Source of the DNA: a virus
IMG/VR virus record: IMGVR_UViG_3300035501_000483
Reading direction: 5' to 3' (one strand)
DNA: 33,526 bases
This document shows positions 3,196 through 28,465 of this stretch, in pieces (within the stretch, counting starts at the first letter, position 1; every line of letters starts with the position of its first letter). The notes beneath the pieces were generated by a model that saw only the letters and a list, made by a program, of their open reading frames with translations, searched no databases and had not been told where the DNA came from. Made by a program: the position numbers and the translations under genes.

Positions 3196-3972
3196 GTGAT
3201 TATGAAAAAGATTAAAAATTTTCTAGTCACTGGCGATACTCATGGACATACTCTTGAACGAATTGCTAATATTCCAAAAGAATATAAAGCAGAAGAAACA
3301 GCATTGGTAATCCTTGGTGATGCTGGTTTTAATTTTTATCTAAATAGAACAGATGAAATTAGAAAACAACAAATCCAAAAGACAGGATTCCGCATTTATT
3401 GTGTACGGGGAAACCATGAAGAACGACCAGAGAATATTCCTACAATGACAGAGATTTATGATTATAATATTTGCGGCACTGTCTATATGGAAGAAAAATA
3501 TCCAGATATTCGGTATCTCCAAGACGGCTCTGTTTATAGCTTAAATGGCTATAAAACTCTTGTAATTGGTGGAGCATATTCTGTTGATAAATGGTATCGT
3601 CTTAATCAAACACCTCCTGGAGATAAATGGTCTGGATGGTTTGAGAGTGAGCAACTCACTTCAGAAGAAATGAATGATATTTCTATGAATCATACGGGAC
3701 AGTATTTCAATTTTGTTCTATCCCACACTTGCCCTTACTCTTGGCAACCTTTTGATTTATTTTTGAAAAATGTTGACCAGAATACAGTAGATAATTCTAT
3801 GGAATGGTGGTTAAACGATTTTAAAAATACTATAACTTGGAACGCTTGGCTTTTTGGCCATTTCCATGATGACAGAATCGTACAGCCTTCTGTTGAAATG
3901 TTTTATACTAATATTGATAACATAAATACAATTTTTGAAAGGCATACACAATGGAAAACATCACTGGAGTAA
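3196..3972 (+). CDS. Calcineurin-like metallophosphoesterase.
   Basis: Motifs GDTHGH, ILGDAGFN and VRGNHEE (MPP motifs I-III). RBS GAAGGTGA. TAA stop. Confidence 0.7.
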   Translation: MIMKKIKNFLVTGDTHGHTLERIANIPKEYKAEETALVILGDAGFNFYLNRTDEIRKQQIQKTGFRIYCVRGNHEERPENIPTMTEIYDYNICGTVYMEEKYPDIRYLQDGSVYSLNGYKTLVIGGAYSVDKWYRLNQTPPGDKWSGWFESEQLTSEEMNDISMNHTGQYFNFVLSHTCPYSWQPFDLFLKNVDQNTVDNSMEWWLNDFKNTITWNAWLFGHFHDDRIVQPSVEMFYTNIDNINTIFERHTQWKTSLE

Positions 3973-4304
3973 CAGTAATTAATTCTTTTTAGTAGCTTAT
4001 TAAATATGGCTGGGGTATTAGCTTTGTTGGAGTTATTTTACTTATAATTTTTGGAAGTGCAGGTTTACTACTTTTGATTGGTTGTGGAATTTATTGGAAA
4101 GAGACCTCCGCAATTTGGATAGGAATTTTTATCATTTTATTTGGTTTTTTCTTTTTTGCCATAGCTTGCAGTGAAGCAACTCCAATTTATGAAACAGAAT
4201 ATCAAATCCTAGTTGATGATAATGTATCTCTTAATGATTTTATTAAACATTATGAGATTGTACGAAAAGAAGGTTTAACTTTAATCGTTAGAGAGGCGAA
4301 ATAA
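3951..4304 (+). CDS. Small multi-TM membrane protein, paralogue A. Two consecutive in-frame TAG codons (3990-3995) are read as sense. An alternative internal TTG start lies at 4074.
   Basis: ATG 3951 with GAAAGG RBS, overlapping the end of the upstream gene. The frame continues through TAG TAG into hydrophobic helices. The C-terminus YQILVDDNVSLNDFIKHYEIVRKEGL is paralogous to the next gene. Confidence 0.45.
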
Positions 4305-4648
4305 TGGATGGTGTGACATACCTTTAGACTATTGAAGTTGCTCAATGGTCGCACGGTTGGAATACATGGTGTACAATTTTTTTATTGTTATTTATTACTT
4401 GTATATTCATCATTGTAATAGCTGCCGATAATGGCTTTGATATGCTTAATTTTATATTTATTATATTGGCAGCATTATCATTTTATTTTTGTCTTAAAGC
4501 TTATGACCATAAAGAACAGATAGAGCCTATCTATCAATATAAAGTAATAATTGATGATTCGGTTTCTATGACAGATTTTACAAAGAAATATGATTTAATT
4601 GAACAAGAAGGTTTAATTTATCTTATACAAGAAAAGGAAGAAGGGTAA
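4304..4648 (+). CDS. Small multi-TM membrane protein, paralogue B. One in-frame TAG (4325-4327) is read as sense. An alternative internal TTG start lies at 4385.
   Basis: ATG 4304 overlaps the TAA of paralogue A (TAATG). RBS GAGAGG. The C-terminus YKVIIDDSVSMTDFTKKYDLIEQEGL matches paralogue A. Confidence 0.45.
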
Positions 4649-4672
4649 GCCCTTCTTCCTTTATTGATTTTT
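4636..4672 (+). terminator. Rho-independent terminator.
   Basis: GGAAGAAGGG-taagc-CCTTCTTCC hairpin plus T-run. The stop codon lies in the loop. Confidence 0.65.
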
Positions 4673-4743
4673 CTTAAAAAATAATATATAATATATATGT
4701 AAGATAAAGGAAGAAGAAAAATGCAAGAAAAAAAGATTGCTTA

Positions 4744-4772
4744 TTGATTTTGTAAAAAATTTATGATATAAT
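4744..4772 (+). promoter_or_regulatory. Sigma-A-type promoter (TTGATT, 17 bp, TGATATAAT).
   Basis: Member of the repeated promoter family ...tgatataatatttatataag... Confidence 0.6.
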
Positions 4773-4794
4773 ATTTATATAAGATAAGAAAGGG

Positions 4795-5154
4795 TTGATA
4801 ACTATGATGAAAATGTGGATTGATGATATTCGTCCAGCGCCAGAAGGTTATCGTTGGATTAAAACTGTCAATGAGGCTAAAGTGTATTTTATGGGAATGG
4901 CTCGTTTTGAAAAGTATTATGATAAAAATTACCAACTCTGTTGTAATAAGAAATTCAATGTGGAAATAATTGATATCGACCACGATGCTGGTGATTGCGG
5001 AGAAGATTATATTGAGTTCCTCAAATGGCTTGAAGTCAATAGTCATGTAAATGGATGGGTTATTCCTCCTATTCACATTCATTCTCAAAATGCAGTTGGT
5101 GTACAGAATATGCGGGCTATCATTCGGCACAATGGTTGGACTGAAATTAAATAA
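4795..5154 (+). CDS. Hypothetical protein.
   Basis: ORF with RBS AAAGGGTTGA. Motif WIDDIRPAPEGY. No confident family assignment. Confidence 0.5.
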   Translation: MITMMKMWIDDIRPAPEGYRWIKTVNEAKVYFMGMARFEKYYDKNYQLCCNKKFNVEIIDIDHDAGDCGEDYIEFLKWLEVNSHVNGWVIPPIHIHSQNAVGVQNMRAIIRHNGWTEIK

Positions 5155-5169
5155 GGAGTTGGTAATTTA

Positions 5170-26149: not shown

Positions 26150-26177
26150 TGACTTAAAAAGAATTTTTTGATATAAT
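26149..26177 (+). promoter_or_regulatory. Sigma-A-type promoter (TTGACT, 17 bp, TGATATAAT).
   Basis: Near-identical copy of the 25897 promoter. Confidence 0.55.
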
Positions 26178-26238
26178 ATTTACATAAGCTAAAAAGCAAA
26201 TAAATAATTATTAAATATAAAAAAGGAGAAATTTTACA

Positions 26239-26508
26239 ATGGCTATGAAGCAAAACAGTAAGCTCGTACTTAATTATCTGAAGGAAGTTAATGGTTCTAA
26301 TGTGACTGCAGCAGATGTTGCTGAGGCTCTGGGTCTTGAGAAGCGTTCTGTTGATGGTATTTTCACCTCTGCTATTCAGCGTAAGGGTCTGGGTGTGCGT
26401 ACTCCCGCTGAGATTGAGCTGGAGGATGGTACACATAAGGCAGTGAAATTCTTGTCTCTGACTCCCGCAGGTCTGGCTTTTGATCCCGATGCGGCTGATG
26501 CTGAGTAA
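26239..26508 (+). CDS. Small GC-rich hypothetical protein (89 aa).
   Basis: RBS AAAGGAG. Codon usage is distinct from AT-rich neighbours. Confidence 0.5.
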   Translation: MAMKQNSKLVLNYLKEVNGSNVTAADVAEALGLEKRSVDGIFTSAIQRKGLGVRTPAEIELEDGTHKAVKFLSLTPAGLAFDPDAADAE

Positions 26509-26525
26509 TTTTTAACATAAATTTA

Positions 26526-26560
26526 AAAGGGAGTAGAATAATTTAATTCTACTCCCTTTT
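26526..26560 (+). terminator. Rho-independent terminator.
   Basis: AAGGGAGTAGAAT-aattt-AATTCTACTCCCTT hairpin plus T-run. Confidence 0.75.
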
Positions 26561-26579
26561 ACCTTCTAAGGAGAAAAAA

Positions 26580-27536
26580 TTGATTGGAATAATTTGTCTG
26601 TTGATTGGACTTATAATAGGCGCGATTGTTGTATATACAATTCAACAGCCAAAGGTGAAAACAACTTAGAAACTTGATACAGAGATAATAAAATAGAATC
26701 AAGCTTTATAGGTTGAATTAGCGTCTTTGAGTACTAAAAAAGAAGAAGTCCAATCAAGCATTTAGTCTTTAAAAGAACAAGCAAATACTGCTGCTGAAGA
26801 ATTTAATAAAAATGCAAAAGAACTTGCAGAAGAAAAATTTAAAAAACAAATTGCTTCTATGGATAAAGCTTGCGAAATTCATTAGAGAGAATGCAATTCT
26901 CAATATTTGGAAATTTTGGAAGATTTAGCCAGCAGCACCCAAAAGTAGATTCAATCTTATAAAGATTCAGTTATAAATTATGAAACTACTATAAAATAGC
27001 TTGAATCAAAAATTAAAGACCAAGAAGCTATTATGTCTGCGGCAGTCGCTGTAAATATACGAGCCGCAGAAATGGATAATAAACAAGATTTTTACCGTTT
27101 AAATCTTTCTTCTGAAGATATAAGTGAAATTAAACGATTAAGAGAAGTAACTCCTTATTTAAGAAATAGTGAACCTCTTAATAAAGTAATCTGGAAAACT
27201 TATTATGAAAAAGCTTATACTGATTTAATTGGACGAGTTGTTGGCTCTGGAGTCCATACTGGTATTTATAAGATAACCAATATTGAAAATAAGATGTGTT
27301 ATGTCGGATAGAGTGTGGATATCGCCGAACGGTGGAAGCAGCACATTAAGCGTGGTATTGGCGCAGAAGCCCCAACTCGCAATAAGTTGTATCCAGCTAT
27401 GCTTGCTGTTGGAGTTGAAAATTTTACTTTTGAAATTATTGAAGAATGTGATCGCTCTTTATTAAATGAAAGAGAGCAATACTGGACTAGCTTTTTAAAA
27501 GCCAAAGAGTTCGGATATAGTATGAGAAGTGGTTAA
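26580..27536 (+). CDS. GIY-YIG homing-endonuclease-like protein with an N-terminal TM helix and coiled coil. Eight in-frame TAGs are read as sense.
   Basis: TTG start 7 nt after AAGGAG. A single frame is maintained over 318 codons only if TAG is sense. C-terminal GIYKITNIENKMCYVG-Q-SVDIAERWKQH is a GIY-YIG motif. Confidence 0.55.
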
Positions 27537-27538
27537 AA

Positions 27539-28465
27539 ATGCCGAAATTAAAAGATTTAACAGGATAGAGTTTTGGAAGATTAGTAGTATTATATCAAGC
27601 TGATTCTAAAAATAAACGAGTTTATTGGCATTGCCGGTGTTCTTGTGGAAGAGAAATTGATATACGAGCTGATAGTTTAACTAGCGGTAATACTGTTAGT
27701 TGCGGTTGCTATCTTAAAGAGACAGCCTCAAGATTAGGGAAAAAATTAAAATTAGATTTAACAGGACAAAGGTTTAATAGATTAATAGTATTAGAAGAAG
27801 ATTTTTCAAAAAAACGAGTTGCTTGGAAGTGTTAGTGTGATTGTGGGAATACAACGATAGTTACATCTGATGCTTTAAGAGGCGGTACAACTTAGAGTTG
27901 TGGATGCCTTTAGAGAGAAAGAGCTATTGAGGCAAATAAAAAAGAAATTCATACTCCACGAATAAATATTATCAATAAACGTTTTGGTAAATTAACTGTT
28001 ATTGAAATCTATAAATATCAAGATAATGATATGTTTTATAAATGTAGGTGTGATTGTGGTAATATAGCAATAGTTAGTGGCACACATCTTAGAAGTGGTC
28101 ATACTTTATCATGTGGTTGTATAAAAAGTTCTTATTACGCTTCTTTAATAGGTAATATTTTAGAAGAATTAAACATCCCATATGAGAAAGAACGTACTTT
28201 TAAAACCTGCATAAATCCAAAAACTAATAATAAATTAAGATTTGATTTCTATATAGATAATAAAATTTTATTAGAATATGATGGTATTTAGCATTTCAAA
28301 GATTCACCAATATTAAAAGAATATTAGTATAGAGATAATATAAAAAATGAATGGTGTAAGCAAGAAGGAATTCCTTTAATAAGAATTTCTTATAAAGAAA
28401 ATAAAAATATCAATATAGATTATATAAAAAGTATTCTTAAAGAATACGGATATAGTATAAAATAA
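27539..28465 (+). CDS. Homing-endonuclease-like protein with a triple W-x-C-x-C-x-CG...SCGC zinc-ribbon repeat and a C-terminal Vsr/PD-(D/E)xK-like domain. Six in-frame TAGs are read as sense.
   Basis: ATG 2 nt after the upstream stop. Three repeats: WHCRCSCG...SCGC, WKC(TAG)CDCG...SCGC and YKCRCDCG...SCGC. One TAG occupies the position held by Arg in the two sister repeats. Confidence 0.5.

Follow-up and report, generated by a model that had tools for sequence, protein, structure and literature searches.

Partial recoding of the amber stop codon (TAG) to glutamine, together with a model for its use, has been described for several phage groups (bioRxiv 10.1101/2021.08.26.457843, PMC9523058, PMC10607447). 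The DNA analysed here, referred to throughout as the window, is a stretch of 33,526 nucleotides from IMG/VR virus record IMGVR_UViG_3300035501_000483, given as one strand from 5′ to 3′, and the evidence supports TAG as a sense codon for glutamine in a subset of its genes, the rest of the phage being in standard code. The adjoining 7.8 kb of the same phage upstream of the window (designated L006; other L numbers denote the assemblies and related phages used for comparison) were included, giving approximately 41 kb read. Judged from the relatives, which are phages of 130–200 kb, at least two thirds of this genome lie outside these 41 kb. Code-15 recoding, its assignment to glutamine and the hypothesis on timing have all been published before, and the window opens no new question.

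The code-15 gut phages of Borges et al. (especially the large, Firmicutes- or Bacteroidetes-infecting clades Jade, Sapphire, Agate and Lak) share with the window partial recoding in dispersed modules, TAG in lysis and putative structural genes, replication genes in standard code, low GC content and the lack of TAG terminators. The skew between gene classes, which the first-pass annotation had taken as the signature of phages that recode amber, matches the description of partial recoding with standard-code replication genes in that study (bioRxiv 10.1101/2021.08.26.457843). A suppressor tRNA with CUA anticodon, tRNA(CUA), is a further likeness, found here in relatives, the phage's own copy not being seen in the 41 kb read. 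Unlike in those phages, the most TAG-dense genes of the window encode homing endonucleases, and a putative holin is free of TAG. For crAss-like phages, code 15 in late genes was validated by metaproteomics (PMC9523058), and TAG is likewise read as glutamine in a phage of a standard-code host (Peters et al.). No sequence relationship to them was found, however, and the present phage, known from sequence alone, differs in its SPbeta-like gene content and its SLH-containing endolysin.

The phage phAss-1 and the proposed Phassvirus are 136 kb human-gut siphophages with TAG in 41 open reading frames (ORFs) and 2–3 tRNA-Sup-CTA genes (PMC10607447). Likewise large, of gut type and rich in tRNAs, the present phage also has TAG at conserved glutamine positions and no dedicated aminoacyl-tRNA synthetase; in both cases, close relatives differ in the orthologues that bear TAG. 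The relationship is distant, PhoH2 being 42.6% identical over 65% of its length (OQ749652); similarity or synteny to phAss-1 that would indicate Phassvirus-like membership was not found, and a megablast search with 16 kb against deposited phages gave no nucleotide match. The nearest deposited proteins reached at most 43% identity and the best GyrA matches at most 36%. These comparisons place the phage at a distance from every deposited group.

In-frame TAG codons and the residue they encode

The curated gene table of the window comprised 40 genes, ten with and 30 without in-frame TAG; 39 of them are complete and one is 3′ partial. Between 3951 and 28465, ten + strand genes hold 26 in-frame TAGs and not a single in-frame TAA or TGA (P ∼ 4 × 10−13 for 26 of 26 interruptions being TAG if the three stops were equally likely). 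The complete genes terminate with TAA (32/39) or TGA (7/39) and never with TAG (0/39), for which P is 6 × 10−6 at the composition-expected TAG share of 27% and 0.016 at a share of 10%. The first-pass annotation had claimed that TAG is read as sense in a subset of genes and terminates none, and that ten genes, with 1–8 TAGs each, need read-through; all ten were recovered where it had placed them. Its statement that about 45 other genes carry no TAG was right as to the missing TAGs and the TAA or TGA ends and too high in number, the curated count being 30. In L006, a radical SAM ORF has five in-frame TAGs and full-length homologues. An apparent TAG terminator at L006 535 was regarded as read through, because the C-terminal tail behind it (...QCE-TAG-KKAIM..LI) is kept with TAG in three phages (L012 and L013 share it). 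None of the TAGs in the 41 kb read is thus unequivocally a terminator. All TAGs were unchanged in independent assemblies from other samples (L002–L005), the sequences being identical in four independent assemblies.

Coding density was calculated from + strand ORFs of at least 80 amino acids under varied stop sets. Standard calling gave 0.80 overall, 0.27 at 26509–28478 and 0.41 at 3951–4648; with TAG as sense these values rose to 0.88, 0.96 and 1.00. The control with TGA as sense gave 0.83, 0.27 and 0.41, respectively, so that the check proposed beforehand, a comparison of TAG-sense with standard calling, showed a recovery of density that the control did not. Six-frame ORF coverage had been tried for this comparison of codes and was rejected as misleading, since spurious antisense ORFs dominate in AT-rich DNA; it was replaced by + strand density.

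The PhoH2 gene (13927–15186, +; 419 amino acids; PIN plus PhoH ATPase, Pfam PIN_4 and PhoH) contains one TAG at 14587 (residue 221), located after the PIN domain and 17 residues ahead of the Walker A motif GPAGSGKT. Among thousands of homologues the closest (68–79% identity) are uninterrupted, about 418 amino acids long, and have Q at the TAG site; the PDB match of the PhoH half begins after this site. With Q at TAG, the predicted peptide across the site is ...GDIYQAILADSLISNK.

The endolysin gene consists of exon 1 (15898–16271, +; TTG start), a group I intron (16272–16667, +; Rfam RF00028) and exon 2 (16668–17217, +), which encodes the rest of Amidase_2 and an SLH cell-wall-binding domain, as assigned by Pfam on the spliced protein, and has no TAG. 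Both TAGs of exon 1, at 16039 (residue 48) and 16186 (residue 97), lie inside the Amidase_2 match and align to Q in 15/15 database homologues (predicted peptides with Q at TAG: ...YVQPSSNDPNYK and ...LADGTVATVQTMPWNYK). The spliced endolysin is 65–74% identical to its homologues, with exon 2 aligning over its full length. The intron scored 63.2 bits against the RF00028 covariance model (gathering threshold 50) at 16267–16599; joining ...GAGAT|ATGTGAA... recovers the invariant motif FEICED of the homologues, the 5′ splice site follows a U, and G is the last intron nucleotide. The intron splits the Amidase_2 domain and is devoid of an ORF for a homing endonuclease; all 15 aligned homologues run through the junction without a break. 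Group I introns reportedly occur in the lysin genes of Streptococcus thermophilus and staphylococcal phages. The endolysin intron resembles these as a self-splicing-type intron in a catalytic domain whose junction restores a conserved motif, and differs from them in lacking a homing endonuclease ORF and in interrupting an amber-recoded host gene.

Two adjacent genes are the most TAG-dense, with 8 and 6 TAGs or ∼2–2.4% of their codons. The first (26580–27536, +) encodes an N-terminal transmembrane (TM) helix, a coiled coil and a GIY-YIG nuclease (Pfam GIY-YIG, PHROG homing endonuclease families), with TAGs at 26667, 26694, 26709, 26763, 26883, 26946, 26997 and 27309, the last of which forms YVG-TAG-S inside the Pfam GIY-YIG match; the homologue in L024 has 12 TAGs. 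The second (27539–28465, +) is an HNH-like homing endonuclease gene with three Cys-rich repeats (PHROG 374 and 559 HNH endonuclease, E 3 × 10−57) and TAGs at 27566, 27833, 27893, 27911, 28289 and 28325. TAG 27833 forms WKC-TAG-CDCG, where the other two repeats have R. Two further TAGs that had been assigned to this gene (27488 and 27518, in an ORF counted from 27470) were dropped, the likely ATG, at 27539, being downstream of both; the other six stood. The four placements inside intact domains that had been noted from the sequence (between the two halves of PhoH2, within Amidase_2, in YVG-TAG-S and at the Arg site of the Cys motif) were all correct.

Three genes were putatively labelled fibre-like from their sequence. 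Fibre-like gene 2 (17635–18168, +; 177 amino acids) has TAGs at 17722 and 17980, and fibre-like gene 3 (18200–18723, +) has one at 18673; its frame is kept only by a −1 shift or the addition of a single G within a run of nine G at 18320–18328. The two are paralogues that align end to end (44% identity, E 9 × 10−36) across three TAGs and also across the frame junction of gene 3. The G9 homopolymer, which breaks the frame of this gene of 31% GC, is the same in a second assembly and could reflect phase variation, programmed frameshifting or a consensus error. Directly upstream of fibre-like gene 2, the interval 17557–17625 contains a palindromic, AT-rich hairpin and, behind it, a (TA)15 microsatellite (17589–17618), a region in which the second assembly differs by one TA unit. 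In fibre-like gene 1 (15250–15879, +; 209 amino acids; TAGs at 15673 and 15835) the frame is open from ATG to a TAA just ahead of the endolysin ribosome-binding site (RBS), which makes read-through plausible. An exhaustive HMMER search with its N-terminal 141 residues found similarity confined to the first 40–55 residues.

The remaining TAG-bearing genes are small. An ORF of 64 amino acids (25958–26152, +) has its TAG at 25988 (codon 11) and lies directly behind a promoter-like TTGACT-17-TATAAT at 25897. Its homologues in L008, L022, L023 and L026 align from residue 1, with TAG at the codon-11 site of L008 and a lysine codon (AAA or AAG) in the remaining three. Membrane protein 1 (3951–4304, +), a small protein with two TM helices, has tandem TAGs at 3990 and 3993 (codons 14–15); its ATG at 3951 has a GAAAGG RBS, and the first canonical start after the TAGs, TTG 4074, lies in the region of the first TM helix without an RBS. 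Membrane protein 2 (4304–4648, +), likewise small and with two TM helices, has TAG 4325 (codon 8), an AGAGAGG RBS and a TAATG stop–start overlap with the preceding gene; its next start, TTG 4385, is inside TM helix 1, and a terminator follows at 4633–4662. The C-terminal domain of membrane protein 1 is paralogous to membrane protein 2. For both, start-site logic, i.e. an RBS and ATG upstream of the TAG, suggests read-through.

Since database proteins of the relatives had themselves been translated with TAG as Q, the residue test was redone at codon level on the relatives' DNA. Under table 11 the relatives' loci do not translate to their database proteins, and TAG in the DNA corresponds to Q in the protein; the public gene calls thus used TAG as Q, and protein alignments are not fully independent evidence. 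At codon level, PhoH2 residue 221 corresponded to CAA (×8), CAG (×3) or TAG (×1), endolysin residues 48 and 97 each to CAA (×4) or TAG (×1), HNH-like residue 251 to CAA (×4) or CAG (×3) and HNH-like residue 10 to CAA (×3). The GIY-YIG motif site at 27309 corresponded to TAG (×3), CAA, TCA (×2) or AAA. As would be expected, codons for a range of residues, Lys, Glu and Ser among them, stand opposite the poorly conserved TAG sites. The reverse exchange was also found, L011 having TAG in the invariant PhoH2 motif SEAQN where the window has CAA, and further PhoH2 sites carry TAG in L008, L009 and L011. The expectation of glutamine was therefore supported, conserved sites showing CAA, CAG or TAG only. 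The glutamine codons CAA and CAG account for 2.1% of codons in the TAG genes, or 3.3% once TAG is counted as glutamine, compared with 3.5% in the other genes.

Gene classes, promoter-like elements and tRNA genes

The use of TAG relative to CAA plus CAG differed between the two gene sets (Fisher p = 1.6 × 10−20), a comparison that is partly circular because the sets were defined by TAG. The TAG-free genes form three + strand blocks by Pfam annotation: an RNA-repair-like block at 4804–13009 (cREC, RNase T, an intein-containing RNA ligase, Macro, three phosphoesterases, an AAA_33 kinase and Band_7), a replication block at 18992–25891 (RNase H, GyrB, GyrA and NAD-dependent ligase, all ending in TAA) and a block at 28479–33526 (helix-turn-helix protein, YorF-like, AAA_24, YorH-like and a 3′ partial DnaB-like gene). 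Conservation of the skew was assessed on homologues in up to ten relatives at 35–91% protein identity. No TAG was found in homologues of the Macro, phosphoesterase, AAA_33, Band_7, GyrA and ligase genes, and several relatives have TAGs in the homologues of PhoH2, endolysin, the holin-like gene, the 64-amino-acid ORF and the GIY-YIG gene. Exceptions were one GyrB and one RNase H with a single TAG each. Across the clade, replication and RNA-repair genes are thus almost always free of TAG, and the endolysin is recoded in the present phage.

Ten near-identical sigma-70-type promoter-like elements (TTGAyT-N17-TATAAT-ATATATA) lie on the + strand of the window, ∼25–40 nt ahead of an RBS and ATG, at 2112, 4664, 4744, 10190, 18784, 23880, 25897, 26149, 29599 and 32102; further copies are present upstream (L006 3543–3585, 3721–3799 and 4269–4309). 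The family precedes TAG-free operons and is common to the IMG/VR phages L012, L015, L017 and L020. From the copy at 23880, the ligase start was placed at ATG 23945 instead of GTG 23861. The block at 15250–18723 (fibre-like 1, endolysin, holin-like gene, fibre-like 2 and 3) is located between terminators and contains none of these elements, which would fit a separate, possibly late, unit. The holin-like gene in this block (17245–17553, +) encodes 102 amino acids with two TM helices and a charged C-terminus and has no TAG; topology and position suggest the holin function. Its homologues in L009, L011 and L024 have 1–2 TAGs.

ARAGORN and Rfam (E ≤ 1) found no tRNA in the window, as the first-pass annotation had said for a suppressor, and relaxed ARAGORN settings gave implausible low-score calls only, none with a CUA anticodon. 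L006 holds tRNA-Leu(UAA), tRNA-Gly(UCC) and tRNA-Lys(UUU), each behind an early-type promoter and just before the DUF2828 gene. Of 23 IMG/VR relatives found via DUF2828 (50–67% identity), 12 contain a tRNA(CUA) gene in the 10 kb ahead of the DUF2828 gene; the relatives carry one or two such genes in a syntenic array. The order in the closest relatives is Arg-Val-Sup-Tyr-Thr-Ser-Leu(UAA)-Gly(UCC)-Lys(UUU)-Cys-DUF2828, where the suppressor (Sup) is also behind an early-type promoter. In L013, a closer relative that shares the radical SAM cluster of L006 at 60–70% identity, tRNA(CUA) follows right after that cluster. In the present phage the radical SAM cluster occupies the place of the upstream half of the array, from which the suppressor is predicted to lie further upstream. 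The relatives' tRNA(CUA) has U1 unpaired with position 72, G73, a standard cloverleaf length and a D-arm resembling that of a phage tRNA-Gln(UUG). The unpaired U1 and G73 are presumably tRNA-Gln identity elements, which would make these tRNAs glutamine-like.

The tRNA genes of the clade, including the relatives' amber suppressors, also share a conserved leader whose ends form the helix AAGGCnn...nnGCCUUGU (L006 3770–3815 and 4553–4632, L103 5133–5196, L119 8541–8615). Its inner pairs change compensatorily between copies; folding z-scores are weak (∼−1.2). A theta ribozyme was considered for this leader and rejected, as theta ribozymes sit 3′ of tRNAs and no Rfam match was obtained. The tRNA-Gly(UCC) gene (L006 4376–4452) has an atypical T-loop, UGCAAUU, and scored 31.8 bits as Rfam tRNA and 34.9 bits as tRNA-Sec, the latter below the threshold of that family.

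Explanations for the recoding

Part of the phage genome is very probably read in genetic code 15, with UAG decoded as glutamine and a phage-encoded suppressor inferred. Decoding would be performed by an amber suppressor tRNA(CUA) derived from tRNA-Gln and charged by the host glutamine pathway, its gene being expected upstream of the DUF2828 array as in the relatives, beyond the part of the contig read. Before the suppressor accumulates, the endolysin (TAG at codons 48 and 97, within its catalytic domain) and the other TAG genes would give truncated products; expression of the TAG genes would then depend on the code switch, and the TAG-free replication genes could be translated by the unmodified host machinery. 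Late timing, with gating of lysis and structural genes, would follow the hypothesis of the literature.

A number of observations run counter to this explanation. With regard to timing, the operon that begins at the early-type promoter at 2112 ends with the genes for membrane proteins 1 and 2, the 64-amino-acid ORF owns the early-type promoter at 25897, the PhoH2 operon follows a TGn-TATAAT −10 element, and the putative holin beside the endolysin is without TAG. The TAG set is not simply late and also includes two homing endonuclease genes, PhoH2 and the upstream radical SAM gene. With regard to decoding, the upstream ORF at L006 4784–5062 could terminate at TAG, and fibre-like 1 and both membrane proteins have no homology support across their TAGs. 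tRNA and Pfam searches of the window and the 7.8 kb upstream found no tRNA(CUA), release factor 2, GlnRS or other aminoacyl-tRNA synthetase, and the slot beside tRNA-Leu(UAA), which holds Sup in several relatives, here holds a promoter and a 38-amino-acid ORF only.

TAG may encode glutamine and yet be restricted to certain genes as a by-product of history and constraint, not as a timing device, an explanation that was judged rather unlikely. TAG would drift in via C-to-T changes at CAG in an AT-rich genome and be purged from genes needed before the suppressor is present; it would also arrive with mobile genes such as homing endonucleases that circulate among code-15 phages. The TAG density of the homing endonuclease genes agrees with such a history, as do the presence in the TAG set of PhoH2, a radical SAM enzyme and the 64-amino-acid ORF with its early-type promoter, and a putative holin that lacks TAG here and not in relatives. 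TAG positions differ between close relatives, indicating ongoing turnover, and CAG has nearly gone from the TAG genes (3 CAG vs. 26 TAG). TAG nevertheless amounts to 36% of the glutamine codons in these genes, compared with ∼10% for CAG in the equally AT-rich, TAG-free GyrA, GyrB, ligase, RNase H and YorH genes, an excess over what replacement of CAG alone would give. Lysis genes, moreover, are reported by Borges et al. to be specifically biased to recoded stops in two of the lineages that they describe. That the same classes are TAG-free in ten relatives (35–80% identity) points to selection, which is equally expected if restriction is a by-product.

It is improbable that the phage has lost its own suppressor and depends on a co-infecting relative or the host for decoding its endolysin and other TAG genes, the shared code acting as a helper-dependence or kin-sensing device, or, in a milder version, that the ambers serve mainly to keep toxic homing endonucleases and membrane proteins encoded by early transcripts from being made before late infection. 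Reading of UAG without any dedicated phage tRNA, by a host suppressor, a near-cognate tRNA-Gln or the suppressor of a co-infecting relative, was considered quite improbable. It would account for the missing tRNA(CUA) in 41 kb that do include the Leu(UAA)-Gly(UCC)-Lys(UUU) array. Suppressors were detected in only ∼40% of TAG-recoded genomes (Borges et al., bioRxiv 10.1101/2021.08.26.457843), a proportion that was counted in favour of such reading and because of which absence from a partial genome says little. Against it, the sequence outside the 41 kb offers room for the gene, the relatives hold it in the same array, and eight TAGs in one gene would be impassable by low-efficiency read-through.

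Assignment of TAG to another residue, e.g. pyrrolysine or lysine, is highly improbable. ARAGORN labels every CUA tRNA as tRNA-Pyl, a label given by anticodon, and AAA or AAG occurs in some relatives at poorly conserved sites (codon 11 of the 64-amino-acid ORF, HNH-like residues 119 and 263). Strongly conserved sites, however, align only to CAA, CAG or TAG, the relatives' suppressors, of standard cloverleaf length and with U1 and G73, are similar to a phage tRNA-Gln(UUG), the Pfam matches of the window include no pyrrolysine synthesis or PylRS domain, and it is a glutamine deficit that TAG fills.

That the ten TAG ORFs are truncated pseudogenes or split genes of a decaying element in standard code has a negligible chance. 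Calling in standard code does fragment them, as the JGI annotation shows, and fibre-like 3 is also broken in frame at its G9 run. All 26 interruptions are TAG, however, in-frame conservation continues past every testable TAG, a site with TAG in one relative has CAA in others, the essential endolysin is affected, and the sequences are identical between assemblies. Taken as a group, pseudogenes, assembly error and a non-glutamine assignment are very unlikely.

Neighbouring features and the phage clade

The RNA ligase gene of the RNA-repair-like block (window 6160–8565, no TAG) encodes 801 amino acids (PHA02142 OB-fold plus RNA_ligase) and is split by an intein with a LAGLIDADG endonuclease domain. 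A major-vault-protein-like gene (Vault_3 and MVP_shoulder; window 1–2070) and a DUF2828/DUF7788 gene (L006 5122–6684) adjoin this block, both unusual as phage cargo. Further upstream, L006 1–3400 (7.8 to 4.4 kb upstream of the window) holds three consecutive radical SAM genes followed by a Cys-rich protein of 200 amino acids, which looks like a peptide-modification cluster; its five TAGs are in the middle gene only, and the cluster is common to L012 and L013.

The window has a GC content of 33.3%, with nearly all genes on the + strand. GC-richer genes (0.40–0.47 vs. 0.33) are located at 1–2070, 11570–13009, 26239–26508 and 30046–30981. Opposite to the rest of the window, they favour CAG over CAA for glutamine (Band_7 20:8, MVP 24:5, YorF 5:0), which suggests a different origin or different constraints.

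A 52,289-bp JGI metagenome contig (3300035502 Ga0376456_0000115) is 99.9% identical to the window, window position 1 being record position 22560, and shorter contigs from three other samples matched at 100%. Single-nucleotide polymorphisms against other assemblies pile up at the window ends (12 at 3–264 and 993–1014, 19 at 33167–33371), the middle 17 kb having one, which indicates strain variants or chimeric contig ends. Exact searches with a 45-mer spanning the PhoH2 TAG in IMG/VR, a 52-mer from L006 in JGI metagenome contigs and a 31-mer of tRNA-Leu(UAA) in IMG/VR gave no match. Annotation by Pfam and PHROG comprised the RNA-repair-like block, PhoH2, the endolysin, the gyrase/ligase block, two homing-endonuclease-like genes, SPbeta-like YorF and YorH, AAA_24 and a DnaB-like gene; a terminase or other marker gene for clade placement was not found in the window. 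The source is an uncultured AT-rich large phage. Its host is probably a Firmicute with an S-layer, Firmicutes being preferred to Bacteroidetes because of the SPbeta-like genes (YorF, YorH), the gyrase and RNA-repair genes and the SLH domain of the endolysin.

A standard-code gene caller breaks all ten TAG-bearing genes. In the JGI annotation, PhoH2 appears as separate PIN and PhoH proteins and the endolysin is largely missing; table 15 is needed to call the region. Read in this way, the window adds an uncultured clade of 130–200 kb phages, probably Firmicute-infecting, to the list of amber-recoded phages, and within one operon-dense region it presents a clade-conserved split between TAG-free replication and RNA-repair genes and TAG-bearing lysis, accessory and selfish genes.

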